This document shows positions 26,643-42,963 of a stretch of 64,000 nucleotides of DNA, one piece after another. The stretch is from assembly GCA_030447685.1 (NCBI GenBank), contig JAUJOK010000009.1, forward strand, positions 4,543 through 68,542, in the 5' to 3' direction. The position numbers and the translations under genes were made by a program. Position 1 is the first letter of the stretch, and each line of letters opens with the position of its first letter. This DNA is from Armatimonadaceae bacterium (lineage in GTDB: Bacteria > Armatimonadota > Armatimonadia > Armatimonadales > Armatimonadaceae). The notes under the pieces were generated by a model, which worked only from the letters and a program-made list of their open reading frames with translations, made no database searches and had not been told where the DNA came from.

Positions 26643-26740
26643 CTGAGCCGTACGGTCGTGCCTCCATGCCCCTTCAGTCCCTTACGCGTCCCGCCCTGCA
26701 CACATCCAGCCCGCCTTGGGGGCAAGTTCTCACGGGGCGT

Positions 26741-26756
26741 GCGATTGACAATAGCA
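26741..26756 (+). promoter_or_regulatory. operator-like inverted repeat GCGATTGACAATAGCA upstream of the blaI-like gene (contains a TTGACA -35-like hexamer)
   Basis: One mismatch from the perfect copy TGCTATTGACAATAGCA at 28252-28268. 25 nt upstream of the blaI-like start. Confidence 0.45.
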
Positions 26757-26780
26757 GATACGACTGATATACTTGCGGAT

Positions 26781-27218
26781 ATGCTGTCCCCCCGTGCTAC
26801 ACGCCGTTTCGCACCCGCGAAAACGGGCCTCGTTGCTCCACTCGGAGAGCTGGAACGAGCGGTCATGGCAGTTGTGTGGTCGCATCCTGCCCCGATGAAC
26901 GTAAGTGATGTTCATGCCGCTCTTGCCCACGAACCGCGCGTGGCATATACCACGGTGAAAACCACACTGGAGCGCCTGGCACAGAAAGGCATCCTGGTAC
27001 AGAGCAAGTCGGGGAAAGCTTATCTGTATCACGCGGTAGTGTCCGAAGCGGAACTGGAGCGGCGTATCGTGACGGCGGCGCTGGATCGTCTTGTGGAGCA
27101 GTTCCCGCAGGCGGTCGCGTCGTTCTTTGTTCACCCTGACCCGAATGTTTCGCAGGCGCAGCTCGATCTGTTGCGGGATGCTATCGAGCGGCGGCGGGAG
27201 GGCGAGGATGATGCCTGA
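26781..27218 (+). CDS. BlaI/MecI/CopY-family (Penicillinase_R) winged-helix transcriptional repressor
   Basis: 'LGELERAVMAVVWSHPAPMNVSDVHAALAHEPRVAYTTVKTTLERLAQKGILVQSKSGKAYLYHAVVSEAELERRIV' is the classic BlaI fold text. Overlaps the next gene by 11 nt. Confidence 0.8.
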   Translation: MLSPRATRRFAPAKTGLVAPLGELERAVMAVVWSHPAPMNVSDVHAALAHEPRVAYTTVKTTLERLAQKGILVQSKSGKAYLYHAVVSEAELERRIVTAALDRLVEQFPQAVASFFVHPDPNVSQAQLDLLRDAIERRREGEDDA

Positions 27219-28188
27219 TCTGTGCCCTATCGTCGCTGCCTTCGCCTTCGCCTATAGCGCGGCCCTGCTCGGCGTCGGTGCCGCGTTGTTCACCACCGCT
27301 TGGTTCGGGCGGAGCCGCCGCGCACCGTCCGCGTTAGAAGCGGCGTGGTGCGCCCTGTTGCCGCTGGTCGCCATTGGGGTGCTGGTCACCATTGCCGTTT
27401 ACGAACCCCACGCACTCGTTGGCAGTACCGCTTCTCATGACCTGTGGCACCTGTGGGCCGAGCGCCTGCACCAAATTCCCGCCTCTCATGGCACGCTGCA
27501 CGCAGCGAACGCTGCCTCGCTGTGTGTCCTCGCCATCTGCCTCGGCAGGACCGCTTACGCCCTGTCGCGTGCTCAGGCATTTGGCAGCGGCCTGCGTTTC
27601 CTCAGCAGCGACCCGCTCCCAGACGTGGCTAACCCTGCCGTGTACTGCCTGCCTTCGGACAAGGCCCTGTGTTTCACCGTGGGCGTACTGCGCCCCCGCG
27701 TGTATCTGACGACGGGTTTGAGGGAGCGGCTGTCCCCGCGGGAGCGTGACGCCGTGCTCGCCCACGAAGCGGCCCATGTGCGGAGGCGCGACGGCCTCTT
27801 GAGCGTCGTTCTCGTAACCTTTTACAACCTGTTCCCGCTGCCTGGCGGATGGCGGCTTTACCACGGGTGGGTCGCCTCTACGGAGCGCGCCTGCGACGCC
27901 GAGGCAGCACGCTCCGTGGGAAGCTCCTGCGATGTCGCCGCCGCCCTGGTCACCGTGGCGCGTCTTGCCCACTCACAGACCCTGCCTGGGGCGGCCTCGT
28001 TCGCGGCGTCGCGGCCCGAGGATGTAGCGGCAAGGGTCCAGGCGCTGCTCGAACATTGCCCGCTCGCCCCGCGCGCCCTGGCGCGGCACCGCATCGGCCT
28101 GGCGGTGCTTGCGGCGCTGAGCTTCTCGGGCCTGCTCGCGGCGTATCCTGTCATCCTGCACCTTGCCGAGATGTTTGCCTACCACTGA
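27208..28188 (+). CDS. BlaR1-like M56-family zinc metalloprotease signal transducer, lacking a penicillin-binding sensor domain
   Basis: 326 aa. TM helices, then 'GVLRPRVYLTTGLRERLSPRERDAVLAHEAAHVRRRDGLLSVV' with an HEXXH motif (AHEAAH), then more TM helices. Translationally coupled to the blaI-like gene. Confidence 0.8.
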   Translation: MMPDLCPIVAAFAFAYSAALLGVGAALFTTAWFGRSRRAPSALEAAWCALLPLVAIGVLVTIAVYEPHALVGSTASHDLWHLWAERLHQIPASHGTLHAANAASLCVLAICLGRTAYALSRAQAFGSGLRFLSSDPLPDVANPAVYCLPSDKALCFTVGVLRPRVYLTTGLRERLSPRERDAVLAHEAAHVRRRDGLLSVVLVTFYNLFPLPGGWRLYHGWVASTERACDAEAARSVGSSCDVAAALVTVARLAHSQTLPGAASFAASRPEDVAARVQALLEHCPLAPRALARHRIGLAVLAALSFSGLLAAYPVILHLAEMFAYH

Positions 28189-28268: not shown

Positions 28269-28293
28269 GACTCGGACACGAGGGGAGGCGTTG

Positions 28294-29583
28294 ATGCTGT
28301 GCCATTGGCCCATCCTCATAGCCTGTCTGTGTACTGCCAGCATCGCCCTGGCACAACCGTCCGCCATTCGAGCGAAGAGTGATATGTTCGCTGCGGACGA
28401 GGCAGTACAGGTTGCGCTGGAGCAAAGCCCCGCTCTGGGCGCAGCACGCCGCCGTGTCGAGGCCGCGACTGCGGCGTTGCGCGGTGCGGGAGCACCGTAC
28501 ACGCCACGGGTGGAACTCGCGCCTGGCGCGGGCTTTACGAATGGGAACGCCCTGCTGTCGCAGCAGTTCGACATTGCGGGACTGCGCACGGCACAAACCC
28601 AACGCGCCGCAGGTGAGCAGAGTGCGGCGCAAGCGCAGGCAGATGCGGTGCGTCTCCAAGTGGTCCTGGAAACACGCACCGCCTACTTCGATCTGGTGCG
28701 GGCCAGGGCGAGCGAGGCGACGGCTCGGGACGCCGTAGGGCTTACCGAGCAGGTGCAGACCATCGTGCGACGGCGTGTCCAGCTCGGGGAAGCGCCTGCG
28801 GTACAGGCGACGCGCGCCGAGATCGAAGTCGCCCGTGCCCAGCAGGAGTTCGTCCGCGCGCAGGCCGATACCCAGGCCCGTGCTGCGATTCTCAATCGGC
28901 TTCTTGGACGGGAGCGACAGCAGCCGATTCAGCCGACGGACAGCCTGACCCTGCCCCCCGCACCACGCCCACTGGAAGAGCAGGTCGCTGAAGCTATGCG
29001 TTTACGCCCCGACCTTCGGGCGGCCCAGGCGCGGCTCGCGGCGTTGCAAGGCGAGGTGGAGGTTGCCCGCGCCCAGGGCAGACCAACCCTGTTCGCGGAG
29101 GTGGCAGCGGATACCTGGAGTCTGGATCGCGCCCCCTTTAGCGGGCGCAACCTGGGTGTACAGGGTCGGCTGAACTTTCCACTTGGTCGCGACCGCGCCC
29201 AGCGTGCCGAGGTGGACCGCACCCGCGCGGTTGCGCTCGCGCAGGAGGCCGAGGTAGAGGTGCTGCGCCGTGCGATTGCTCGCGAAATTGAACAGGCCGC
29301 CGCCGATCTTACCGCCTCACGCCAGATCGCACAGAACTATGAGCAGACGATCCTGCCCCGAACCGCCCAACTGCTGAGCGCCACCCGCGCGGGTTTCGAG
29401 AGCGGTTTGACGACCTTCTTGGAAGTGCTGGAAGCCCAGCGCGTCGCGAGGCAAACCCAGGTCGAGTACCAGACGACCCTGTTTGAGGCCGTGCGTGCCC
29501 GCACCACCCTGGACGCCGCGCTGGGGGCCGCCATTCTCGGCCCGACCCCAATGCCCCCGATCCCCGCAAGACAAATGAGGTAG
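28294..29583 (+). CDS. TolC-family outer membrane efflux protein (CzcC/CusC-like OMF)
   Basis: Signal peptide, two OEP repeats, coiled-coil rich. 'gaggggagg' RBS before TTG/ATG 28291/28294. Confidence 0.85.
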   Translation: MLCHWPILIACLCTASIALAQPSAIRAKSDMFAADEAVQVALEQSPALGAARRRVEAATAALRGAGAPYTPRVELAPGAGFTNGNALLSQQFDIAGLRTAQTQRAAGEQSAAQAQADAVRLQVVLETRTAYFDLVRARASEATARDAVGLTEQVQTIVRRRVQLGEAPAVQATRAEIEVARAQQEFVRAQADTQARAAILNRLLGRERQQPIQPTDSLTLPPAPRPLEEQVAEAMRLRPDLRAAQARLAALQGEVEVARAQGRPTLFAEVAADTWSLDRAPFSGRNLGVQGRLNFPLGRDRAQRAEVDRTRAVALAQEAEVEVLRRAIAREIEQAAADLTASRQIAQNYEQTILPRTAQLLSATRAGFESGLTTFLEVLEAQRVARQTQVEYQTTLFEAVRARTTLDAALGAAILGPTPMPPIPARQMR

Positions 29584-29586
29584 CCC

Positions 29587-31905
29587 ATGAAAGCCAGAAC
29601 CATCACCCACGTTTTCGCACTGCTCGTCGGCGCGCCGCTGCTGCTTCTGTTGCCTGCCCGCGCCCAGGAGGAGGCGGGCCACATGCACGGCCCCGATGGG
29701 CGGCATATCGCCGTCGCCAGCACCTTCGGGGGCCAGGCAGCAGGGCAGCGGAGCATCCTGAGCCACCACGACCTGATGATTACCGATTTGCGCCAGCCTG
29801 GTCCCGACAGGAACGGCAAGGTGGTCGAGGGCTGTGACGTACATTCGGTGATCCACAAGAAGGGTGACCCGAAAGCGGTCATTCACCGCGAGCACAACAC
29901 CTTCGAGCCTGAAAACGGTGTGTACGGCTCGCACATGATGTACCGCGAGCCAGGGGAGTATGTCATTATCGAGAAGGTCACTCTGCCCGATAAGCAGCAG
30001 GTGACTCTGGAGTTCCCGATATGGGTGCCCGCTCCCCAGGGTCAGGCTGAGCACGCCCATCACTCCCCCTGGTGGACAGTACTCGGAGTTGCCGCAATCC
30101 TCCTCGCCATACTGGGTGCATTTCTTTTGGGGAGGCGCAGCGGGCGGCGAACGGTGGCGATGCTGTCTATCGTCGCTCTGGTCACGGGTTCCCTCCCCAT
30201 TGTTCCCACGGCTCATGCGCAGGAAGACGGAGAAGAAGCGGGTCATATGCACGGCCCTGACGGGCGGCACGTCGCCGTTGCCAGTACGTTCGGGGGCGGC
30301 AATGCGCAGGAGCCGCTACGGGCCTACCCCACCGCCGACCGACAGGAGGCCGCCGTCCAGACCCAGGGACACTACCGCTTCCGCCTGTCCATCGAGAACG
30401 AGGAAATGGCCCCGCCTGACCCCGATGTCGTCACCATCTCGTCCGATGCGGCGAAAACCGTCGGGCTGACAACAGTCGCGGCGCGGGCGGCGCGGGGGAC
30501 GAGCGCACTGACGACAACAGGTCAGGTGAAGCCAAACCCGAACCGTGCCGCAACCGTGAACGCGCGTGTCGCGGGGCGCGTGGTGCGCGTAGGGGTGACG
30601 CCAGGAGATGAGGTGAGCGCGGGCCATGTCGTCGCTGTGCTCGACAGCGCCGAAATAGCCCAGGTCCAGGCTGATTTACGCCGAGGCGCGTCTGAGATCG
30701 CCCAGTCGGACGCCGCTGCCGCGCGCGCCCGCTCCCAAATTGCCGAGGCACAGGCCAACCAAGAGCGCGCCCGTGCCGAGGCAAGTCAGGCGCAGGGGCA
30801 GGTGCGGAACGCCGAACGTACTCTGGCACGCCAGCGGGAACTTGCGCGGTCAGGCGCGTTCGCTTCGGGTCCCGTCGAAGCCGCGCGTTCTGCCGTTGCG
30901 ACTGCCGAGGGCGAACTGAACGTTGCGCGCACAGCGCTTGCAACCCTGGAAGCGCAGGCGCGCCGCCTGGAAACAGGCGTCGCCGATGGTGTGGTATCCC
31001 GCCGCGAGGCCGAGACTGCTCAGAGCGCCGCCGCCCAGGGCCGCACCCGCGTCGAAACCGCCCAGCGGCAACTAACGATTGCACGGGCGGCGCTTGCCCG
31101 TGAAGAACAAATCCAGCGCCGCGGGCTGCGCGACGCGCGCGAAGTGCAGCAGGCCCAGGCCGATCTTGCCGCAGCCCAGGCTGCGCTGCGAGCCGCGAAC
31201 GCCGTGGTTCAGAGCGAGGCACGGCGGGTTCAGGCTGCCCGCGGCGGCGCGGCGGAGGCAGAGGCAACGCGCACACGGGCGCGCACCAATCTCGCTTCGG
31301 CGCGCAACCGATTGCGGTTGCTCGGCGCAACGCCCAGCGGCGGCAGTCAGGTGACGGTGGTGACACCACTGGGGGGCGAGGTGGAGGCGCGGCCCGTCAG
31401 CGCAGGCGAAGTGGTGGAGGCGGGGCAGACGCTCGCACGCATCCTGAACACGGACAGCGTGTGGGTCGAGAGCGACGTGTTCGAGAAAGACTTGCCACAA
31501 GTGCGCGTCGGCCAGGCCGTGACTATCGCCGCCGACGCCGTTCCTGGCCGCACCTTCCAGGGGCGCATTTCTTATATTGGTGGCGCGGTGAACCCTGAAA
31601 CTCGCGCCGTGCGTGTCCGCACCGCAGTCACCAACCCTGGCGAGGTGCTCAAGCCCAATATGTTTGTTCGGGTGCTTGTCGGCGCAGGCCGAGGTCGTGC
31701 GATTCTCGTGCCCCAGGAGGCTGTCCAGGAGGACGGGAACGAGCAGGTCGTCTTCATCCAGGAAGGGGAAGGCTACCGCCGCCGCGCTGTTCGGATCGGC
31801 GCGACGCTGGGTGACATGGCAGTGATCGAAGGGGGGCTGAAGGCGGGTGACAAGGTGGTCACGCAAGGCGCGTACCAGTTGCTCGCCTTGGCGAAGAAAG
31901 GATAA
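29587..31905 (+). CDS. RND efflux membrane fusion protein (CzcB/CusB-like) with two tandem N-terminal HMHGPDGRH-motif modules
   Basis: 772 aa. Signal '...LLLLPARAQEEAGHMHGPDGRHIAVASTFGG' then a roughly 130-aa module. A second hydrophobic segment follows, 'WWTVLGVAAILLAILGAFLL...AHAQEDGEEAGHMHGPDGRHVAVASTFGG'. Then canonical HlyD/MFP lipoyl, hairpin coiled-coil and beta-barrel ('VVAVLDSAEIAQ...', 'RVGQAVTIAADAVPGRTFQGRISYIG'). Confidence 0.85.
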   Translation: MKARTITHVFALLVGAPLLLLLPARAQEEAGHMHGPDGRHIAVASTFGGQAAGQRSILSHHDLMITDLRQPGPDRNGKVVEGCDVHSVIHKKGDPKAVIHREHNTFEPENGVYGSHMMYREPGEYVIIEKVTLPDKQQVTLEFPIWVPAPQGQAEHAHHSPWWTVLGVAAILLAILGAFLLGRRSGRRTVAMLSIVALVTGSLPIVPTAHAQEDGEEAGHMHGPDGRHVAVASTFGGGNAQEPLRAYPTADRQEAAVQTQGHYRFRLSIENEEMAPPDPDVVTISSDAAKTVGLTTVAARAARGTSALTTTGQVKPNPNRAATVNARVAGRVVRVGVTPGDEVSAGHVVAVLDSAEIAQVQADLRRGASEIAQSDAAAARARSQIAEAQANQERARAEASQAQGQVRNAERTLARQRELARSGAFASGPVEAARSAVATAEGELNVARTALATLEAQARRLETGVADGVVSRREAETAQSAAAQGRTRVETAQRQLTIARAALAREEQIQRRGLRDAREVQQAQADLAAAQAALRAANAVVQSEARRVQAARGGAAEAEATRTRARTNLASARNRLRLLGATPSGGSQVTVVTPLGGEVEARPVSAGEVVEAGQTLARILNTDSVWVESDVFEKDLPQVRVGQAVTIAADAVPGRTFQGRISYIGGAVNPETRAVRVRTAVTNPGEVLKPNMFVRVLVGAGRGRAILVPQEAVQEDGNEQVVFIQEGEGYRRRAVRIGATLGDMAVIEGGLKAGDKVVTQGAYQLLALAKKG

Positions 31906-31918
31906 GGGACTGCCGTTC

Positions 31919-34900
31919 GTGTTCAACCGCATCATCGAGTTCAGCATCAAAAACCGTGTGCTCGTCTGCGCCGCCGCGCTCATGCTCCTGGTATACGGCG
32001 CGCGGGTCGTCACACAGATGCCCGTGGATGTGCTGCCTGATCTGAACCGCCCCGTGGTCACGGTCATGACCGAGGCGCATGGACTTGCCCCCGAAGAGGT
32101 CGAGCCGCTTGTCACCTTCCCCATCGAGACGGCAATGAACGGCGCGGCGGGGGTGCAGCGGGTTCGTTCGGCTTCCAGCGCGGGGCTTTCCATCGTCTGG
32201 GTGGAGTTCGACTGGGACACCGACATCTTCCGCGCGCGCCAGGTCGTCAACGAAAAGTTGCAGACCGCGCAGGGACGGCTGCCCACGGGCACGTTGCCCT
32301 CACTCGCCCCTGTATCCTCCATCATGGGCGAGGTGCTGCTTGTCTCGCTGTCGAGCAAGGACGGCACCACGCCGCCCATTGAGGTGCGCTCGCTCGCAGA
32401 CTGGGTGGTGCGCCCGCGCCTCCTGGGCGTGCCTGGCGTGTCGCAGGTTGTGCCCATCGGGGGTGGGGCCAAGCAGTTCCAGGTGCTCACCAACCCCGCC
32501 CGCCTCCAGCAATACGGCGTGACGCTCGACCAGTTGACCGAAGCCGCGCGCCAGTCCAACCTGAACACGTCGGGCGGGTTTTTGCAGACGCCGCAGCGCG
32601 AGGCGATCATCCGCATCACGGGCCGCGCCCGCTCCCCCCAGGACATCGCCCGCACCGTTGTCGCTCAGAAAAACGGCGTGCCTGTAACCATTGGGCAGGT
32701 GGCGGAGGTCCGCTTCGGGGCGGGACCGAGGCGCGGTGATGCCAGTGTAAGCGGAGCGCCCGCCGTCATCCTCAGCGTTCAGAAGCAGCCCAACGCAAAT
32801 ACCCTGGAACTGACCCGCGCGCTCGACAAGGCGCTCGGCGACATCCAGGCTGCGCTCCCCCGCGACGTGACGATAAACCGCGACCTGTTCCGCCAGGCCA
32901 CCTTCATTGAGGCCGCCGTGGACAACGTGAAGGAGGCGCTGCGCGACGGCACCATCCTGGTGTTTGTCATCCTGCTCGCCTTTTTGCTGAACCTGAGGGC
33001 TACTTTCATCTCGCTCGTCGCCATACCGCTGTCCTTCGTAATCGCCATGCTGGTTCTGGACCGCTTCGGCATCTCGGTCAATACGATGACGCTCGGTGGG
33101 CTGGCGGTCGCTATCGGGCTGGTGGTGGACGACAGCATCGTGGACGTGGAAAACGTGGTGCGGCGGCTGCGGGAGAACCGCGCGAAGCCTGCTCCACTAC
33201 CGCCACTCCAGGTGGTCTTTGAGGCAAGCGCCGAGGTCCGAAACAGCATTGTGTTCGCCACTGTTATCATTGTGCTGGTCTTCGTGCCGCTCCTGTCACT
33301 GGAGGGCATGGAAGGGCGCGTGTTCCTGCCGCTGGGCCTGGCCTTTATTACCGCACTGACCGCTTCCTTGCTCGTTTCGCTCACGCTAACGCCCGCTCTC
33401 TGCGCCTTTCTGCTCGCCCGCACGGCTAAAAAAACATCCGCCGATCACGCCGAGGACACCTGGCTGGTGCGCCACTTAAAGCGTGGGGACGAGCCGCTGG
33501 TGCGCTGGGCCATTCGCCATCCCACTCCCGTGCTCGCAGGGGCTGCGTTGCTGTCTCTCGCCGCGCTCGCCCTGCTGCCGCGGATGGGACGTGAGTTCCT
33601 GCCCCCGTTCAACGAGGGCAGCCTTTCCATCAGCGCGATCCTGCCTCCTGGTACGGGCCTAACTGAATCGAACCGAATAGGGACCGCTATCGAAAAGCAG
33701 CTCCTGTCCGTGCCTGAAGTTGTCCATACGGGGCGGCGTACGGGGCGCGCTGAGATGGATGAGCACGCCGAGGGCGTCGGCTATTCCGAAATCGACGTGG
33801 GTTTACGTGCGAGCCGACGCTCCCACGGACAGGCGGTCGCCGAGATACGCCGAAAGGTGGAGGCTATCCCTGGCGCGGTGGTCGCTGTCGGACAGCCCAT
33901 CTCGCACCGACTGGACCACCTGTCGTCGGGAGTGCGCGCCGCACTTGCCGTAAAAGTGTATGGCCCCGACCTGGACGCGCTGAGGAGCCGTGCTCAGGAG
34001 GTCCGAAACGTTATGTCCCAGGTGCCTGGCGTCGTGGATTTGCAGGTCGAGCCGCAAATTGAGGTGCCTCAGGTTCGGATCGACATCGACCGAGACCAGG
34101 CCGCGCGCTACGGTCTGACCCCAGGGGAACTCGCCGAAACGCTGGAAACCGCGCTGGGCGGCCATGTGGTCGGGCAGGTCTTGCAGGAACAACGCACCTA
34201 TGACCTTGTGGTCTGGTTTGACGAGGCCGCCCGAGGCGATACGGATGTGATCGGGCGGACACTGGTAAGCACGCCGTCAGGGGCGCGCGTACCGCTCGGG
34301 CAGTTGGCACGGGTTCGCAAGGCGGCGGGGCCGAACACCATCAACCGTGAAAACGTGTCGCGGCGCATCGTGGTCCAGGCCAATGTCCAGGGTCGAGACC
34401 TGAACAGCGTCGTGACTGACCTCCAGCGGCGGATGGGCGCGGTGCAGGCGGCGTGGCCCACGGGCTACTTCGTTGAGTACGGGGGCCAGTTCGAGAGCCA
34501 GCAGAACGCCATGAGCCGCATCCTGCTGCTTGGAGCGTTCACCGTCGTTGCCATCTTCCTTGCGCTTTATGTTGCCCTCCAATCGTGGCGGCTCGCCCTC
34601 CAAGTCATGGTAAACCTGCCGCTTGCTCTCGTTGGCGGTGTCCTTGCCGTTTACCTGACAGGCGGCGTGCTGTCCGTGGCCTCGTTGGTCGGCTTTATCA
34701 CTCTGTTCGGTATCGCCACCCGCAACGGCATCATGATGCTGTCCCACTATGTCCACCTGATGCGCGAGGAGGGGGAAGCCTTTGGGGAACACATGATCGT
34801 GCGCGGTACGCTGGAGCGACTTTCACCCGTCCTTATGACTGCCCTCGCCGCCGCACTCGGTCTGCTGCCGCTGGCGCTTTCAGTGGGTGAGCCTGGCAAG

Positions 34901-35125
34901 GAACTTTTGCAGCCGATTGCCGTGGTTATTTTGGGCGGGCTGCTATCCAGCACGCTGCTCGACCAGTTGGTCACGCCCGCGCTGTTCTTCCGCTTCGGAC
35001 GCGCCGAATGGGAGGGTTCCGCCGAGGGGAGCGGGAACGTTATGCCGCACGCAGGGGACGATCAGGGTACATCTGTTGCCCCGACGGGCGGGGGCGGGAG
35101 AAGCCAGCCTGAACCCGCGCACTGA
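31919..35125 (+). CDS. heavy-metal-efflux RND transporter (CzcA/CusA family)
   Basis: About 1068 aa from the GTG at 31919 ('MFNRIIEFSIKNRVLV...'). 12 TM helices and two large periplasmic loops. RBS 'aaggataaggga'. Confidence 0.9.
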   Translation: MFNRIIEFSIKNRVLVCAAALMLLVYGARVVTQMPVDVLPDLNRPVVTVMTEAHGLAPEEVEPLVTFPIETAMNGAAGVQRVRSASSAGLSIVWVEFDWDTDIFRARQVVNEKLQTAQGRLPTGTLPSLAPVSSIMGEVLLVSLSSKDGTTPPIEVRSLADWVVRPRLLGVPGVSQVVPIGGGAKQFQVLTNPARLQQYGVTLDQLTEAARQSNLNTSGGFLQTPQREAIIRITGRARSPQDIARTVVAQKNGVPVTIGQVAEVRFGAGPRRGDASVSGAPAVILSVQKQPNANTLELTRALDKALGDIQAALPRDVTINRDLFRQATFIEAAVDNVKEALRDGTILVFVILLAFLLNLRATFISLVAIPLSFVIAMLVLDRFGISVNTMTLGGLAVAIGLVVDDSIVDVENVVRRLRENRAKPAPLPPLQVVFEASAEVRNSIVFATVIIVLVFVPLLSLEGMEGRVFLPLGLAFITALTASLLVSLTLTPALCAFLLARTAKKTSADHAEDTWLVRHLKRGDEPLVRWAIRHPTPVLAGAALLSLAALALLPRMGREFLPPFNEGSLSISAILPPGTGLTESNRIGTAIEKQLLSVPEVVHTGRRTGRAEMDEHAEGVGYSEIDVGLRASRRSHGQAVAEIRRKVEAIPGAVVAVGQPISHRLDHLSSGVRAALAVKVYGPDLDALRSRAQEVRNVMSQVPGVVDLQVEPQIEVPQVRIDIDRDQAARYGLTPGELAETLETALGGHVVGQVLQEQRTYDLVVWFDEAARGDTDVIGRTLVSTPSGARVPLGQLARVRKAAGPNTINRENVSRRIVVQANVQGRDLNSVVTDLQRRMGAVQAAWPTGYFVEYGGQFESQQNAMSRILLLGAFTVVAIFLALYVALQSWRLALQVMVNLPLALVGGVLAVYLTGGVLSVASLVGFITLFGIATRNGIMMLSHYVHLMREEGEAFGEHMIVRGTLERLSPVLMTALAAALGLLPLALSVGEPGKELLQPIAVVILGGLLSSTLLDQLVTPALFFRFGRAEWEGSAEGSGNVMPHAGDDQGTSVAPTGGGGRSQPEPAH

Positions 35126-35150
35126 ATTCGTTTTTCCAGGGAGTAAAGAT

Positions 35151-36164
35151 ATGAGTGAAACAGGATGGAGCCGCCGCCGCCTCCTCGGCGCGGCGGTCGT
35201 GACGGCAGGCGCGGCGGGAACCGCCGCTGCTCTGGGGGGCGCGGACCAGGCGCTCGCTGCGACTCAGCAAGACCGTCGAAAGAGAAAGACCCCACCCATG
35301 ACCGCCGAGGAGATGGCGGCAGTGGACACTGCGCTGGGTAAGAAGGGCCGCTACGTGGAAGCAGAGGCCGTCTACACCACGGCGCTGCCGCGTGCTGACC
35401 TGAAGGTGTCGGTCAAGGGTGATCCCGTCCCGACCGCACTGGGATTCGGCGGCTGGGTGTCGCTGAAGAAGACGCTGGACGGCAAGAACACGGTCCTGAT
35501 GAGTGACACCGTGCTGCTCCAGGACGAAGTGAACCCGCTGATCTCGGCGGCGCAGGCGAACGGCCTGGAGGTCAGCGCGATTCATAACCACTTCTTCTAC
35601 GAGGAGCCGCGCATCTTCTACATGCACGTCCACGGCATGGGCGCTGCCGCAGACCTGGCGCGCCGTTATGCCACAGCAATCCAGACGACCAAACTGTTTC
35701 CCGCCAATCAGCCACCCGCAGGCCAAGCGCCCGCGCGCACGGGCAAAGAGATATTCGACCTGCCCACCCTGGACAAGATCGTGGGCAACACGGGCAGCGT
35801 GAACGGGCCTACCTACAAGTACACCATCGGGCGCAGCGACCTTTTCATCACGGCGATGGGTGCGGAAATGACCGCTGCCATCGGACTGAACACCTGGGCT
35901 TCCTTTGCGGGCACGGCAGAAAGTGCCCATATTGCGGGCGATGTCGCGATGCTGGAGCCTGAGGTGAACCCCGTCATCAAGGCCCTGCGCAGGCATAACC
36001 TGGAAGTGGTCGCCGTCCACAATCACATGCTGGGCGAAGACCCGCGTATCTTCTTCCTGCATTACCTGGGGCGCGGCCCCGCTACGACGCTGGCACGAGG
36101 CTTCCGCGCCGCCCTGGATGAACTGGGCAGGCACGGCAGGAGCGGGATGCGGATGGGAAGGTAG
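35151..36164 (+). CDS. Tat-signal secreted DUF1259-family protein (two internal repeats)
   Basis: 'MSETGWSRRRLLGAAVVTAGAAGTAAALG' is a twin-arginine signal. Repeated 'EVSAIHNHFF...' / 'EVVAVHNHML...' halves. RBS 'gggag'. Confidence 0.7.
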   Translation: MSETGWSRRRLLGAAVVTAGAAGTAAALGGADQALAATQQDRRKRKTPPMTAEEMAAVDTALGKKGRYVEAEAVYTTALPRADLKVSVKGDPVPTALGFGGWVSLKKTLDGKNTVLMSDTVLLQDEVNPLISAAQANGLEVSAIHNHFFYEEPRIFYMHVHGMGAAADLARRYATAIQTTKLFPANQPPAGQAPARTGKEIFDLPTLDKIVGNTGSVNGPTYKYTIGRSDLFITAMGAEMTAAIGLNTWASFAGTAESAHIAGDVAMLEPEVNPVIKALRRHNLEVVAVHNHMLGEDPRIFFLHYLGRGPATTLARGFRAALDELGRHGRSGMRMGR

Positions 36165-37223: not shown

Positions 37224-38148
37224 GAGATTCCGCCGTTGCGCCCAGGTTGCAGTCCGCGTCCTCGGGCGCGCATATGCCCCACGTCTCCACCTGGACCGTA
37301 GTGTGGGTCATGTCAAACTCGCGCTCCAGTACCTCCCGTGCGGCTTGAAGCACCTCCTGCTCGCTCTGCACCCCCGCCTCGTCCAGAACCAGATGCGCCG
37401 TCAGGCTGTGTTTGCCGCTCGTGATCGCCCAGACATGAAGATCATGAACGTCCTGCACCCCTGGCAACGCCCGCAGGGACGCGTCAATCTGCTCCAACTC
37501 GATACCCTCAGGCACGCCCTCCAGCAGGATGTTCACGCTCTCCGAGAGCAGCGTCCAGGTGCGGGGCAATACCCACAGGCCAATCAGGACGGCGAAGATC
37601 GGGTCCACCTGCCACCAGCCTGTGAACTGGATCACGAGCGCCCCCGCGATCACGGCCACCGAACCCAGCAGGTCACTCCACACCTCCAGGTAGGCTCCCT
37701 TCATGTTCAGGCTCTGGGAGCTGCCTGCCTGGAGAACGCGCATTGAGAGGAGGTTGACCATAAACCCGAGCGCGGCTACGCCGAGCATCCAACCCGACTG
37801 GATTTCGGGCGGCTCCTGGAACCGCTTCCACGCCTCCCAAAGGATATAGAAGGCGACCAGGAACAGCACCGCCGCGTTCACCGCCGCCGCCAGTATCTCG
37901 AAGCGGTAGTAGCCGAAGGTGCGCTTTTTGTCGGCGGGCCGCTTGCTGAAGCGAATCGCGACCAGCGCGATTCCGAGGGCAGCGACATCGGTGAGCATGT
38001 GGGCGGCGTCGGAAAGCAGCGCCAGGCTCCCCGTCACGAAGCCGCCCACGACTTCGGCTATCAAGTACGTGGCTGTCAGAGTCAGGGCGATCCTCAGCGC
38101 CCGCTCGTTACCTGCGCCCCCGTGAGTGTGGCTATGGCCTGACCCCAT
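37204..38148 (-). CDS. cation diffusion facilitator transporter (CzcD-like)
   Basis: His-rich N-terminus 'MGSGHSHTHGG', six TM helices with 'LLSDAAHMLTDV', C-terminal cytoplasmic domain. RBS 'gaaggagg' 6 nt before the ATG. Confidence 0.85.
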   Translation of the reverse strand: MGSGHSHTHGGAGNERALRIALTLTATYLIAEVVGGFVTGSLALLSDAAHMLTDVAALGIALVAIRFSKRPADKKRTFGYYRFEILAAAVNAAVLFLVAFYILWEAWKRFQEPPEIQSGWMLGVAALGFMVNLLSMRVLQAGSSQSLNMKGAYLEVWSDLLGSVAVIAGALVIQFTGWWQVDPIFAVLIGLWVLPRTWTLLSESVNILLEGVPEGIELEQIDASLRALPGVQDVHDLHVWAITSGKHSLTAHLVLDEAGVQSEQEVLQAAREVLEREFDMTHTTVQVETWGICAPEDADCNLGATAESHAGHEH

Positions 38149-41100
38149 GCGCGGCCTCCTTCCCTTCAAACCAGGCGTACAGCGTGGGAAGCACGATCAG
38201 GGTCAGCAGCGTGCTGGACAGGATGCCCCCGATCACGACGGTCGCCAGCGGGCGTTGTACCTCGGCCCCGACCCCCGAAGACAGGGCCATCGGGACGAAA
38301 CCCAGGCTCGCCACGAGTGCGGTCATTAGCACGGGCCGCAGTCGTGTGTGCGCCCCTTCCCGAACTGCCTCAGGCACGTCCCGCCCCTCCTCGCGCAGCT
38401 TGTTGATGGCCGACACCAGAACCACACCGTTCAACACGGCGACCCCAAAGAGAGCAATGAACCCGACCCCCGCCGAGATGGAGAAGGGAAGCCCCCGCAG
38501 CAGCAGGGCGAGGATGCCCCCCGTGACCGCGAGCGGCACACCCGTAAAGATCATTGCGGCCTGCCTGAGCGACCCGAAGGTCATGAACAACAGCAGGAAG
38601 ATCAGCGCCAGCGCCAGGGGGACGACAATCAGGAGTCGCGTGCGCGCGCTCTGGAGGTTCTCGAACTGCCCGCCCCACTCGATGCGGTAGCCCGTGGGCA
38701 GTTTCACCTGCCCCGCCACCTGCGCCTGGGCGTCGGCGACGAATCCGCCCAGGTCGCGCCCGCGTACATTCGCCTGAACCACGACCCGACGCGCCCCCTG
38801 CTCACGGCTTACCTGCGCGGGCGAGGGACGGATGGCGATCTGGGCTACCTGGGAAAGCGAAACCCGCTCGCCGCCTGGGGCAGCGACGCGCAGCTCCTCC
38901 AGAGCGGTTATGTCGTTGCGCAGGGCCTCGGGCAGCTTCACCACGATGTCGAACCGGCGGTCCCCTTCGATCACCTGGCCCACGGTACGCCCGCCGATGA
39001 ACGCCTCAATTACCTCCTGCACGTCGGCGACGTTGATGCCGAACCGCGCGGCGGCGGCGCGGTCAATGGTGATCTCCAGCGTCGGCAGGCCCGTGGTCTG
39101 CTCCATCGTCACGTCCTCAGCCCCCGCCACCTTTCCGAGCACCGCCTGGACGCGGTTGCCCAGGCTGGATAGGGTTTCCAGGTCTTCACCAAACACCTTC
39201 ACGGCGATGTCCGCCTTCACGCCCGACACCAACTCATCCGTGCGAAGCTGGATCGGCTGCGAAAACGCGTAGCCCTGGCCTGGGACTTCCCTTTCCAGCC
39301 GCTCCTGCATCTGGGAAATGAGCTTTTCTTTGGTCAGGCCCCGCCGCCACTGCCCGCGATCCTTCAAGGTGATAATCATGTCGCCAACGCTCGGGGGCAT
39401 CGGGTCGGTGGCAAGCTCCGCGCTCCCGATGCGCGTGTAGGCGTCTACCACCTCGGGGAAGGACTTGACGACCCGCTCCGCCGCCCCGACCATAGCGACG
39501 GAATACTCGACCGATACGCCGGGGGGGCGGATGGGCTGGATCGCGATGGCTCCTTCGTCCAGGCGCGGGATGAACTCCGAGCCGAGCAGCGGAAACAGCG
39601 CGGCGCAGCCCAGGAAAAAGAGCACGCTTCCCGCCGCGACTATCCCGCGCCGCCGAAGCGCCCATTCCAGGGTCGGACGGTACAGGCGGTCCGCCGCGCG
39701 CAGGATCAGGTTGTCCTTTTCCCGCGTATCGCGGGACAGGCAAAGCGCGCAGAGCGCGGGGATAAGAGTGAGCGTCAGGATCAGCGCGCCCACGAGTGCG
39801 AGCGCGACGGTATAGGCCATCGGTCGGAACATCTTCCCCTCGATGCCCGTGAGGGTCATGATGGGCAGATAGACGATAATGATGATCGCCACGCCGAAGG
39901 TAATGGGCGTGCCGGGGTGTGCCGACCTCGCGCGCCGAGGCGAGGACGTTCTGGATCACCTCGGCGCGCGTCAGGGTGCTCCCCCGATGCTCCCGCGCCT
40001 CCGCCAGGCGACGGACAGCGTTCTCGACCATGACCACCCCGCCATCCACGATCAGGCCGAAGTCAATCGCGCCGAGCGAAAGCAGGTTGGCGGAGATGCC
40101 GAAGTGCTGCATCCCGATCACGGCGAACAGCATGGCGAGCGGAATGGTGCAGGCGACGATCAGCGCGCCGCGCACGTTGCCGAGCAGCAGGAGCAGCACG
40201 GCGACGACCAGGATGCCGCCTTCCAGCAGGTTGCGCTCAACCGTACCGATGGTCTTTTCAACCAGTTCGGTGCGGTCATAGACGGTCGCGAGTCGCACGT
40301 CGGGGGGCAGGGAAGCGCGCACCTGGCGCACCTTCTCGTCCACGGCAAGCGACACGGTGCGGGAGTTCGCGCCTTTGAGCATCATCGCGATGCCCAGGAC
40401 GGTTTCTTTGCCGTTGTGCGTGGCCGCGCCCTGGCGCAGTCCGCCGCCCTCGGTGACGGCGGCGACATCCCGCAGGAAGATCGGGGTGCCGTGTTCGGCG
40501 GCAACAACGATGCTCTCGATATCGCCCTTGTTGCGGACGACCCCGATACCCCGCACCAGCAGGCGCTCTGCTCCCTTGACGATGTAGCCGCCGCCCGCGT
40601 TCGCGTTGTTGCGCTCGACCGCTTCAATGACTTCACGCAGGGTCACACCCCGCGACAGCAGCCGCTGCGGGTCGATCTCTACCTGGTACTGCTTCTCGAA
40701 CCCGCCCTGGCTGTTTACCTCAGCGACTCCTGGCACGGTGCGAAGCTGCGGCTTGACCAGGAAGTCCTGGAGCGTACGCAATTCGGTCGGGCTGCGCTTC
40801 TCGGAGTCCAGGGTGTACTGGTAAATCTCGCCCAGCCCCGTCGAAACAGGGGCCATTTCGGGCGCGCCGACACCTTCGGGCAGGCTTTCCCGCGCTCCCG
40901 CGAGCTTCTCGCCCACGAGCTGGCGCGCGAAGTACAGGTTCACATCGTCGGCGAAGACGACCGTCACCTGGGACAGCCCGTACTGCGAAAGGGAGCGCAC
41001 CTCGGTTACATCGGGCAACCCTCCCAGTGCTACTTCGATGGGAAAGGTAACCAACTTTTCCACTTCGGCAGGCGCGAGGCCAGGAACCGCCGTGTTGATC

Positions 41101-41243
41101 TGGACCTGATTATTGGTCACGTCAGGCAGGGCGTCGATGGGCAGGCGCTGGAAAGCGACCAGCCCCCCGAGCACAAGGAAGACCGTCCCGATCAGGACGA
41201 GAAGGCGCTGCCGCACGCCAAATTCAAGGATGCGTTCGATCAT
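38132..41243 (-). pseudogene. second CzcA/CusA-family RND transporter, split by a 1-nt frameshift at a C-run near 39905
   Basis: N-terminal 'MIERILEFGVRQRLLVLIGT...ASAREVGTP' continues in another frame as 'ITFGVAIIIIVYLPIMTLTGIEGKMFRPM...'. Removing one C from 'acaccccggcacgccc' restores '...EVGTPGTPITFGVAIIII'. Confidence 0.8.
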
Positions 41244-41244
41244 T

Positions 41245-42963
41245 TTAGTGCGCGTGGCCCTCCGAAAGCTCGCCCTTCTGGGCTTCGGACTGGAGGACGA
41301 ACGCCCCCGCGACCACGACACGCTCGCCCGCCTTGAGTCCTTCCCTTATCTCTACCTGCGCCCCGCGCGTTTCGCCGACCTGGACTGTCCGCCGTTCATA
41401 GCCCTCTCCCTCGGCTACGAACACGGCCCGCGCGCCTTCTTCCCCGACGACGGCATTCTGGGGAACCAGGATCACGCTGCGCTTCGGGCCTGCCGCCAGA
41501 TGGACCTGAGCGAACATCTCGGGGCGCAGCCGTCGTCCCTGATTGCTTACCAGGCAGCGGGCGGCCAGCGCCCGCGTCTTCTCATCTACGCGGGTGGCGA
41601 GGGTACGCACCGTCCCTGGAAAGCGGACGTTCGGGTAGGCGGCAACCGTCACCTCGACCCGCTGACCTGCGCGCACACGGGCGACCTCCTTTTCAGGGAT
41701 ACTTGCCTGGACGATCACGCTGTTCAGGTTCTCGAGCAAAAACAGCGTGGTGCTGCGCTCCACGGTTTCGCCGAGCGTGGCGAGTTGCTGGGCGATCACG
41801 CCGCCGAAGGGAGCGAACAGGGTGATCTTGCCGCCGCTGCCCTCGGCGTGGCCCGTGCCCTCCAGGGCGTACAGGTTAGCCCGCGCCGCGATCAGCGCCT
41901 GCCGCGCGCCGTTCAGCGCCGTCAGCGCAGCAGCTTCCTCCTTCTGGGCGCGCCGCACGTCCTGCTGGGCACGGATGACACCCTGGCGCGCCCGCTGGAC
42001 ATCGCCCTCGGCGGCGCGCACCTCGGCCTCGGTCGCCTGCACGGCCTGACGGGACAGCAGGTCACCAGAGAACACGCGCCGCTCGCGGGCCAATGTCTGT
42101 TTGGCGTTCTCCACCCGCGCCCGTGCCCGCTCGGCCCGCGCCTGATCCTGGCGGTGTTCCAACTGGGCCTGCTCCAGCTCGGCGCGGGAAGCAATCCCTT
42201 CTTTGAAGAGCCGCTCCGTGCGCTGCAGCGCGACCAGATGGGTCTGCACCTCGGTCTGCGCGGCAAGCAATTCGAACTGGGCCTCGGACAGCTCGGATTG
42301 CGCCGCCTGGAGCGGGGCTTGTGAAAAGGCCCCTGCCCGCGCCAGCGCGCGCTGATTCCGTACGGCGACCTGCGCACTGCTCTGCCTGGTCTGGGCCTGC
42401 CGCACCTCGGCGCGGGCCTGTGCGACACCCGCCTGGGCCTGGTTGATTTCGGCGCGGGCGGTTTCCAGCCGTGCCTTCGCCTGCTGCACCGCAGACTCGG
42501 CCTGGTGCTCCGCCGCGTGCGCCTGCGCCACCTCGTAGCTGTCCAGGATCACGAGCGGCTGACCCGTGCGAACCGTGTCGCCCAGGTTGACCAGTACGCG
42601 CACCACGCGGCCCGCCACAGGGGGCGTGATCTTGGCGACGCGCTCGGTGCTGGCTTCTACCGTGCCAGGGACGGTCAGGATGTTCTGCACGGGCCGATAG
42701 CGCGCAGGCTCCACGCGGATGCCAGCGGTCTTCGCCCCTGCGGGATCAAGCCGCACATGGCCCTCTTCCCCATGCTCCTCATCGGTGTGCTTCTCTGTTT
42801 CCCCGTGTTCGTCCGCATGTTCGTCATTGCCGTGTTGCGCTTCTGCGCTTTCAGCGGCGACAGGGGTCGTGGAACGGACGCGCGACATCACCGCCGCCGT
42901 ACCCAGCGTCCCGAATAGAAAGGCCCCTGCGACCAGCAGGGGGGTCCGTCGGTTGGTGCTCAT
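41245..42963 (-). CDS. RND efflux membrane fusion protein (CzcB/CusB-like) with a His/Glu-rich N-terminal metal-binding tail
   Basis: 'AESAEAQHGNDEHADEHGETEKHTDEEHGEEGHVRLDPAGAK' then MFP domains; long QAxA coiled-coil hairpin. Confidence 0.85.
   Translation of the reverse strand: MSTNRRTPLLVAGAFLFGTLGTAAVMSRVRSTTPVAAESAEAQHGNDEHADEHGETEKHTDEEHGEEGHVRLDPAGAKTAGIRVEPARYRPVQNILTVPGTVEASTERVAKITPPVAGRVVRVLVNLGDTVRTGQPLVILDSYEVAQAHAAEHQAESAVQQAKARLETARAEINQAQAGVAQARAEVRQAQTRQSSAQVAVRNQRALARAGAFSQAPLQAAQSELSEAQFELLAAQTEVQTHLVALQRTERLFKEGIASRAELEQAQLEHRQDQARAERARARVENAKQTLARERRVFSGDLLSRQAVQATEAEVRAAEGDVQRARQGVIRAQQDVRRAQKEEAAALTALNGARQALIAARANLYALEGTGHAEGSGGKITLFAPFGGVIAQQLATLGETVERSTTLFLLENLNSVIVQASIPEKEVARVRAGQRVEVTVAAYPNVRFPGTVRTLATRVDEKTRALAARCLVSNQGRRLRPEMFAQVHLAAGPKRSVILVPQNAVVGEEGARAVFVAEGEGYERRTVQVGETRGAQVEIREGLKAGERVVVAGAFVLQSEAQKGELSEGHAH

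Follow-up and report, generated by a model that had tools for sequence, protein, structure and literature searches.

A heavy-metal RND adaptor from Armatimonadota with a conserved N-terminal add-on and a duplicated histidine motif

Introduction

A stretch of 64,000 nucleotides from an Armatimonadaceae bacterium (GenBank assembly GCA_030447685.1, contig JAUJOK010000009.1, positions 4,543 to 68,542 of the forward strand; referred to as the window) encodes an efflux operon of the resistance-nodulation-division (RND) type, whose adaptor or membrane fusion protein (MFP) is the subject of this report. The C-terminal 490 amino acids (aa) of this protein are a genuine heavy-metal RND adaptor. The 280 aa in front of them form a conserved add-on that is strongly selected and in which a histidine motif occurs twice. 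The window protein has a 100% identical match in NCBI (P0012), and the members of its family are annotated merely as "efflux RND transporter periplasmic adaptor subunit".

Results

Layout of the adaptor gene

The features of the adaptor are listed below with their nucleotide (nt) positions in the window; a slash marks the signal-peptidase-like cut point, TM stands for transmembrane, and pLDDT for the predicted local distance difference test score.

29587..31905, plus strand: adaptor (MFP) with N-terminal add-on, 772 aa, from the listing of open reading frames (ORFs)
29587..29664, plus strand: signal peptide 1, aa 1-26, ending ARA/QEE, read from the sequence
29665..29736, plus strand: acidic spacer and His motif 1, aa 27-50, with the motif core at nt 29680-29706
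29749..30030, plus strand: periplasmic β-sandwich, aa 55-148, 94 aa, six strands, AlphaFold2 pLDDT 92-98 in both models
30046..30066, plus strand: membrane-adjacent His-rich stretch AEHAHHS, aa 154-160, a degenerate third half-motif
30067..30132, plus strand: TM helix 1 (TM1), aa 161-182, running from periplasm to cytoplasm, from hydropathy and from a helix at 161-184 in both models
30133..30150, plus strand: positively charged loop RRSGRR, aa 183-188, predicted to be cytoplasmic
30151..30219, plus strand: TM helix 2 (TM2) or internal signal-peptide-like segment, aa 189-211, ending AHA/QED
30220..30300, plus strand: acidic spacer and His motif 2, aa 212-238, with the core H220-H228 at nt 30244-30270
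30316..30426, plus strand: first adaptor strands, aa 244-280, LRAYP...YRFRLSIENEE, with a β-hairpin at 255-274, pLDDT 90-97
30427..31902, plus strand: adaptor core with lipoyl, β-barrel and membrane-proximal domains, HlyD_D23 1.8e-42
30649..31320, plus strand: long α-hairpin within the adaptor core, aa 355-578, from the model helices

An AlphaFold2 model built on an alignment of 101 sequences (mean pLDDT 86.8) contains helices at 161-184 and 188-202, while both His motifs are disordered (pLDDT below 50). The first-pass annotation of this DNA had assigned one hydrophobic anchor to each of two tandem modules. Each motif does follow a hydrophobic segment, but there are three such segments, namely the signal peptide, TM1 and TM2, and the position of RRSGRR between the latter two indicates that the supposed second anchor is a helical hairpin. 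Conservation per column is highest in motif 1 (0.89) and motif 2 (0.76), followed by the β-domain (0.69) and the adaptor core (0.55-0.66), and is lowest in the hydrophobic segments (0.32-0.50; 0.32 for signal peptide 1 and 0.44-0.50 for the TM segments). Single invariant positions are G182 and, within the first adaptor strands, A246, E270 and E272.

The adaptor core

The profile of RND adaptors, TIGR01730, matches the protein with 165.4 bits against a cutoff of 94.9, and the best match of aa 280-772 is ZneB (3lnn), both by sequence (E 1.6e-25) and by fold (E 5.4e-20); Foldseek also finds AcrA, MexA and CusB. The four-domain adaptor fold and the operon context with an outer-membrane factor (OMF) and an RND gene, as judged from the AlphaFold2 model, Foldseek and the related loci, place the protein among the RND adaptors. 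The description as a CusB/CzcB adaptor given in the first pass stands at the level of the general adaptor profile and its nearest relative ZneB, but not at that of the named families, since the scores for CzcB/NccB (TIGR00999, 149 bits against a cutoff of 319.3) and CusB (NF007303, 66 bits against 390) stay below their cutoffs, and the N-terminal arm carries the pattern H-x-H...D...H and no Met cluster. Compared with ZneB and CzcB, the adaptor differs by the whole 280-aa N-terminal add-on, which is absent from ZneB, and by a far longer α-hairpin of about 220 residues.

This hairpin is built from four helices (355-421, 424-466, 472-512 and 514-578), and the hairpin of a second MFP in the window (MFP2, 41245-42963, minus strand) is also unusually long. 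Weak matches to Pfam OEP lie inside both hairpins (E 0.047 in the first MFP, 2e-7 in MFP2). An unusual mode of docking or a wide periplasm in Armatimonadota might account for such long hairpins.

The duplicated histidine motif

A near-identical motif, EEAGHMHGPDGRH(I/V)AVASTFGG, had been noticed twice in the MFP, and it is indeed present at aa 28-49 (nt 29668-29733) and aa 216-237 (nt 30232-30297); a six-frame search of the window for the pattern H.HG.DG.H gives these two matches and no others. The core of motif 1 reads H32-x-H34-G-P-D37-G-R-H40, in which H32, H34 and the residues G35 to H40 are conserved in at least 90% of the 101 sequences, and the counterparts of H32, H34, D37 and H40 in motif 2 (H220, H222, D225 and H228) are near-invariant or invariant. 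Each copy is preceded by a hydrophobic segment with an AxA/Q end (ARA/QEE and AHA/QED). The duplicated unit consists of this signal-like segment, the acidic spacer and the His motif, and the β-domain occurs only once, so that the metallochaperone-like unit proposed earlier is not itself duplicated. A third half-motif, which echoes the HMHGPD core, stands before TM1, with the sequence EHAHHSP in the window; 32 of 99 relatives have (E)EHxHGPN at this place.

An assembly duplication would have left two copies of identical DNA, and this was looked for and excluded. The two copies of the window share 83% of their nucleotides and differ by ten synonymous changes and one non-synonymous change in 22 codons. 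Taken over 20 genomes, the two copies agree in 62-86% of their nucleotides and are separated by 4-11 synonymous codon changes in each genome, and positions with the same residue use identical codons in 158 of 322 cases, compared with 142.5 expected from codon usage alone. The synonymous sites are randomised, which indicates that the duplication is old and that protein-level selection has kept the two peptides identical. Recent gene conversion was rejected as an explanation of this identity, because synonymous sites lie near the random expectation. An artefact in a wider sense, either a recent or assembly-born duplication or a frameshift falsely joining two genes, has a negligible probability in view of this divergence and of the finding of the same single ORF in 18 independent assemblies, about 100 protein clusters and metagenome contigs.

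The two copies also vary together. In the variable flanks of the motifs, the copies within a genome are more similar to each other (identity 0.54) than copy 1 is to copy 2 across genomes (0.36), and orthologous copies likewise stay below the within-genome value (0.40 and 0.38). Rare substitutions in the core occur in both copies together, for example HAH with HAH, HLH with HLH and GADG with GADG, and the divergent member P0126 has lost the Asp and the Arg together in both. With synonymous sites randomised, this co-variation argues for co-selection of the copies, and on the evidence of these alignments it points to a partner or a ligand that both copies have in common; older, repeated rounds of gene conversion are a less likely cause.

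The β-sandwich domain

The beta-rich domain of roughly 110 aa with His, Met and Cys residues that had been read from the first module is modelled as a β-sandwich with pLDDT above 90; its size is 94 aa, and the Cys is not a conserved feature, as position 83 varies between C, A and V. Conservation at 90% or more is found in 32 of its 94 columns, and the invariant or near-invariant residues comprise H60, H61, D62, H100, E102, N104, E107, E109, N110, H116 and M117.

Residues 1-268 have no Pfam or NCBIfam match at E<=0.1, and a profile search against all PDB sequences returned only generic Ig-repeat matches. When 24 members were scanned singly at E<=10, sub-threshold matches to the YtkA-like family (PF13115) appeared in five (best E 0.0055) and a match to the P19 family (PF10634) in one (E 0.081), whereas the β-domain of the window itself gave neither, even at E<=10. 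The suggestion of a YtkA-like fold thus has a faint echo in some relatives and none in the window sequence, and the scans do not place the domain in the P19/FetP/FtrA family. Among its fold neighbours, the compact matches of low root-mean-square deviation or high probability include CrdA (1.7 Å over 77 aa), PmoD, the FtrA/P19/FetP/Tp34 group and CopC, with PmoD as the top Foldseek match (E 0.015, probability 0.99); generic Ig/C2 domains are found as well. The modelled domain therefore resembles periplasmic copper proteins weakly, and the likeness to periplasmic metal proteins assumed in the first pass is borne out as far as the nearest solved folds include copper-binding ones such as CrdA, but not by any family match above threshold.

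Several candidate assignments were discarded. A CusF-like domain, which had been named as a possibility, is contradicted by the absence of a CusF profile match and by the fold itself, which is a six-strand β-sandwich and not an oligonucleotide-binding (OB) fold; neither CusF nor the C-terminal domain of SilB is among the fold matches listed. Annotation of aa 1-268 as a cupredoxin or heavy-metal-associated (HMA) domain fails for want of any Pfam or NCBIfam match, and the domain was kept apart from the CopC/CrdA family, as judged by profile match, His brace or Met loop. We conclude that the β-domain has a β-sandwich fold of the CopC/YtkA type and forms a new sequence family of its own, outside every named family.

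CrdA, a member of the CopC family, is a periplasmic partner of the CrdAB-CzcBA pump of Helicobacter pylori, which belongs to the heavy-metal efflux (HME) branch of RND pumps (PMC9182242). It differs from the β-domain in being encoded by a separate gene and in being Met-rich and His-free, and with 13-14% identity a relationship between the two is undetectable at the sequence level. PmoD and YcnI are Cu-binding β-sandwich domains anchored by a C-terminal TM segment. Both proteins, of which YcnI exchanges Cu(II) with the domain of a membrane-bound partner (PMC12362106), resemble the add-on in their order of a signal peptide, an extracytoplasmic β-sandwich and a TM anchor. However, they have no detectable sequence relationship to it, do not occur in efflux adaptors and lack a duplicated His motif.

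The hydrophobic segments and a possible internal cleavage

The two AxA/Q sites have the same residue profiles at positions -3 and +1. Ala occupies position -1 in 78 of 97 sequences at site 1 and in 81 of 97 at site 2, position -3 is A, V, S or L, and Gln at +1 is found in 58 of 97 sequences at site 1 and in about 60% at both sites. A211, the -1 residue of site 2, is conserved at 90% or more and is the sole highly conserved column of TM2, and the stretch of eight residues richest in Lys and Arg within the linker contains a median of three of these and no Asp or Glu. TM2 thus displays a conserved signal-peptidase-I pattern, with RRSGRR as n-region, an h-region and AHA/Q, which suggests that it may be a cleaved internal signal peptide. 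An internal start codon before TM2 was considered and rejected, because M192 is not conserved.

If TM2 were cleaved, one gene would give rise to two proteins in a 1:1 ratio, a capture protein anchored in the membrane and an adaptor in soluble form, an outcome to which we would assign, from these sequence patterns, a little less than an even chance. CusB is itself a soluble adaptor. A precedent for the idea is the fbcH gene of Bradyrhizobium japonicum, reportedly described by Thöny-Meyer et al. in 1991 as one gene for cytochromes b and c1, whose product is said to be split by an internal signal peptide into two membrane or periplasmic proteins. Those proteins are unrelated to the adaptor, for which cleavage is only predicted from the AxA/Q pattern. 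The Gln at +1 of both sites (nt 29662-29667 and 30217-30222) also recalls the 'Q-rule' of Bacteroidetes, by which substrates of signal peptidase I acquire an N-terminal pyroglutamate (PMC5837995).

The hydrophobic segments could also serve for anchoring only, with the TM hairpin in place of the usual lipid or single-helix anchor and the β-sandwich as a spacer or assembly domain, for example towards the RND porter or the cell wall, and with no part for metal chemistry. Adaptors do need a membrane anchor (PMC4446572), and the generic Ig/C2 fold matches, together with the lack of a significant family match, would suit a spacer. On the other hand, the TM segments are among the least conserved parts of the add-on while its positions rich in His, Glu and Asp are near-invariant, the duplicated His motif is kept by selection over saturated synonymous sites, and a spacer role leaves the conserved AxA/Q site unexplained. 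A purely structural role is accordingly quite improbable.

Distribution of the family

Only 11 proteins among 5.8 billion were retrieved with the first 268 aa as query, and about 107 cluster representatives (700-830 aa, 38-66% identity) with the full-length protein; a sharp gap in score, from 447 bits for the family to 126 bits for the next adaptor, sets this group apart. The 19 genome loci belong nearly all to Armatimonadota (Fimbriimonadia and Chthonomonadales), and the add-on and the full adaptor are encoded in one ORF in 18 of them. As to whether orthologues carry one or two modules, both motifs are present in all 19 loci and are exact in 97 of 101 full-length proteins, with P0026, P0084 and P0107 having a single substitution each, in one motif copy. 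Natural variants with one motif exist, as P0058 is devoid of motif 1 and P0114 of motif 2. The exact motif pattern was found at the DNA level in 13 metagenome contigs, all of which represent this adaptor family; wherever the ORF is complete, it carries both copies. The matches with a single motif are all cut by contig ends.

An exhaustive search of 1.84 billion representative proteins with a hidden Markov model (HMM) of the mature module 1 revealed no unfused, single-module or stand-alone form. The other matches are unrelated surface proteins with Rib/Ig repeats, which share the generic PGxY..V.LPDG at profile positions 85-120. The apparent stand-alone protein P0009 (256 aa; loci L001 and L016) is a truncated remnant with a piece of the adaptor downstream in another frame, and the short matches P0127, P0130, P0134, P0135 and P0156 are fragments or chimeras and were rejected as stand-alone ancestors. 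Taken together, about 100 homologues and 31 related loci, nearly all of them from Armatimonadota, have preserved this layout. The family is so far restricted to the lineage of Armatimonadota.

At L001 (7659-9134, the same place as L016, from a Fimbriimonas metagenome-assembled genome), the gene breaks off after 'SIENEAL' and an adaptor fragment, TTGKVSANPNGLVNV, follows downstream. A rearrangement or insertion is suggested by two large flanking ORFs on the minus strand, which share the ending ...HHQLQLIVKPK. In P0130 (103 aa), an N-terminus like that of a response regulator, MARILVADDQEMMRDSL..., runs into the β-domain, DLMITDLRKPGP...VYGSHMM; this protein is probably a chimera of assembly or gene calling.

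The operon and its pump

The genes surrounding the adaptor are the following.

26658..28188, plus strand: BlaI-like repressor and BlaR1/M56-like membrane protease, upstream, Penicillinase_R 1.3e-26 and Peptidase_M56 8.7e-10
28291..29583, plus strand: TolC-like OMF of the same operon, Pfam OEP 2.3e-33
31847..35125, plus strand: HME-type RND pump of the CusA/CzcA family (RND1), TIGR00914 849 bits

The order OMF-MFP-RND is kept in 16 of 18 intact related loci, and L006 and L018 have no OMF match. RND1, whose TIGR00914 score compares with a cutoff of 701, is about equally near to ZneA (517 bits) and CusA (485 bits). The Met triad of CusA is absent, as S, S and H stand in the places of M573, M623 and M672, and RND1 does not conform to the CusA type for Cu(I)/Ag(I). 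At the positions of D602 and D654 of ZneA, which we take to be residues of its proximal site and whose numbers agree with those of the aligned ZneA chain, RND1 carries H640 and H687; a further His is H691, and the equivalents of E136, E610 and D658 of ZneA are kept. The fourth TM helix (TM4) of RND1 reads AIGLVVDDSIVDVEN; it has one Glu besides three Asp but lacks DFG, and it follows neither the Czc pattern DFG-DGA-VEN nor that of CusA. Both the TM4 motif and the His/carboxylate features are conserved in 18 orthologues. Judging from these residues, RND1 may represent an undescribed HME subgroup with proximal-site His and TM4 AIG-VDD-VDVEN. Since the Met triad is missing and His stands at the proximal site, a divalent, His-preferring metal (Zn, Ni, Co or Cu(II)) appears to be the more likely substrate than Cu(I)/Ag(I).

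The BlaI-like repressor and the BlaR1/M56-like protease are probable regulators of the operon, and the same pair lies upstream in six related loci (L004 and L006-L010). The C-terminus of the repressor is devoid of a CopY-type Cys motif, and the protease carries HEAAH; the pair could form a proteolytic metal-sensing circuit. Directly 3' of the RND gene follows a DUF1259 protein (34887-36164; Pfam 9.1e-79) with two copies of the domain and a weak match to a Tat signal. A homologue occurs in only one related locus, L020, on the opposite strand and upstream of the operon.

Discussion

The evidence tilts slightly in favour of the view that the gene encodes an RND adaptor with a built-in accessory module for metal capture in the same reading frame. 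The predicted topology is derived from three features: the presence of a signal peptide, a loop that obeys the positive-inside rule, and the fact that adaptors reside in the periplasm. After removal of signal peptide 1, the chain would begin with a disordered, acidic periplasmic arm bearing H-x-H-G-P-D-G-R-H, followed by the 94-aa β-sandwich with its conserved His, Glu and Asn residues. TM1 would bring the chain back to the cytoplasm, where the RRSGRR loop would lie, and the second hydrophobic segment would re-export it, such that an identical His arm opens the periplasmic adaptor. At the periplasmic surface of the inner membrane, a divalent metal, such as Zn(II), Ni(II), Co(II) or Cu(II), would be bound by both arms and the β-sandwich, and the metal would be handed to the N-terminus of the adaptor and then to the His/carboxylate proximal site of the pump. 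The whole might thus be a His-based counterpart of the Met-based relay from CusF via the CusB N-terminus to CusA. The add-on may also have a part in the choice of substrate, as suggested in the first pass.

Some observations weigh against this reading of a built-in capture module. The motifs are predicted to be disordered, and their function would have to be read from composition and conservation alone; the variants P0058 and P0114 indicate that neither copy is indispensable; the metal specificity is deduced from residue chemistry and neighbouring genes only; and cleavage is not proved by an AxA site where a TM helix ends.

Extra metal-binding domains on HME adaptors are known from the N-terminus of CusB and from the CusF-like C-terminus of SilB (PMC4446572). 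The Cus system shares with the operon described here the OMF-MFP-RND logic and a periplasmic metal-binding unit that, together with a disordered adaptor N-terminus, feeds an HME-RND pump (PMC4446572). It differs in using Met ligands and in having CusF as an OB fold encoded by a separate gene, whereas the window adaptor has candidate His/Asp ligands and a β-sandwich within the adaptor gene itself, ahead of the TM hairpin, and its putative donor and acceptor arms carry the same motif. SilB from Cupriavidus metallidurans CH34 likewise has a metallochaperone-type domain fused to an HME adaptor (PMC4446572), but this domain is C-terminal, an OB fold and joined directly without a membrane segment, while the window protein has a β-sandwich at its N-terminal side, with two hydrophobic helices between this domain and the adaptor.

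A more specific version combines the capture module with cleavage at TM2. In this case, the precursor would be split into an anchored capture protein, representing the new domain family, and a soluble adaptor, both with co-evolving His arms (pyroGlu/Gln-EEE-GHMHGPDGRH) that would exchange metal between equivalent sites and feed the His-lined pump. We regard this combination as possible but rather doubtful. If true, the internal signal peptide would fix the ratio of chaperone to adaptor, and the gene would encode a self-contained, stoichiometric chaperone-adaptor relay of a kind undescribed for any tripartite pump.

Alternatively, the arms and the β-sandwich may act as a metal-sensing switch, which would bind the metal and activate or gate the pump allosterically without handing over any ion, a role that has been proposed for the N-terminus of CusB. 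The evidence from architecture and conservation is the same as for metal capture, and the co-variation of the arms would fit the docking of both on one regulatory surface; moreover, CusB is reported to activate CusA directly (PMC4446572). However, metal transfer would be served equally well by an arm that, as in CusB, opens the adaptor, and the data do not separate the two; on balance, a switch without transfer seems unlikely.

The Met-based Cus system is the only one in which the capture of metals and their hand-over to HME-RND pumps are well understood. The family described here offers a compact natural test case for the His-rich adaptor tails of divalent-metal pumps, with a nine-residue His motif present twice, a conserved unclassified β-sandwich and natural variants with one motif. 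In the adaptor reviews consulted, we have found no description of an unclassified β-sandwich family at the N-terminus, of an accessory domain that is set off from the adaptor by a TM hairpin or internal signal peptide, or of a His motif that is duplicated, co-evolves and stands at each of the two periplasmic N-termini.

A second efflux operon in the window is of the canonical Czc type, with an RND protein whose TM4 reads DFGLIVDGGVVMVEN and a cation diffusion facilitator (CDF) transporter nearby. As had been pointed out in the first-pass annotation, its adaptor MFP2 carries a different, His/Glu-rich tail, in which a TM anchor is followed by HGNDEHADEHGETEKHTDEEHGEEGH. The RND gene of this operon (38132-41321, minus strand) is split into two overlapping ORFs, 39234-41321 and 38132-39892, which correspond to positions 1-432 and 441-1020 of ACR_tran, respectively; the split may be due to a frameshift or a sequencing error, or the gene may be a pseudogene.

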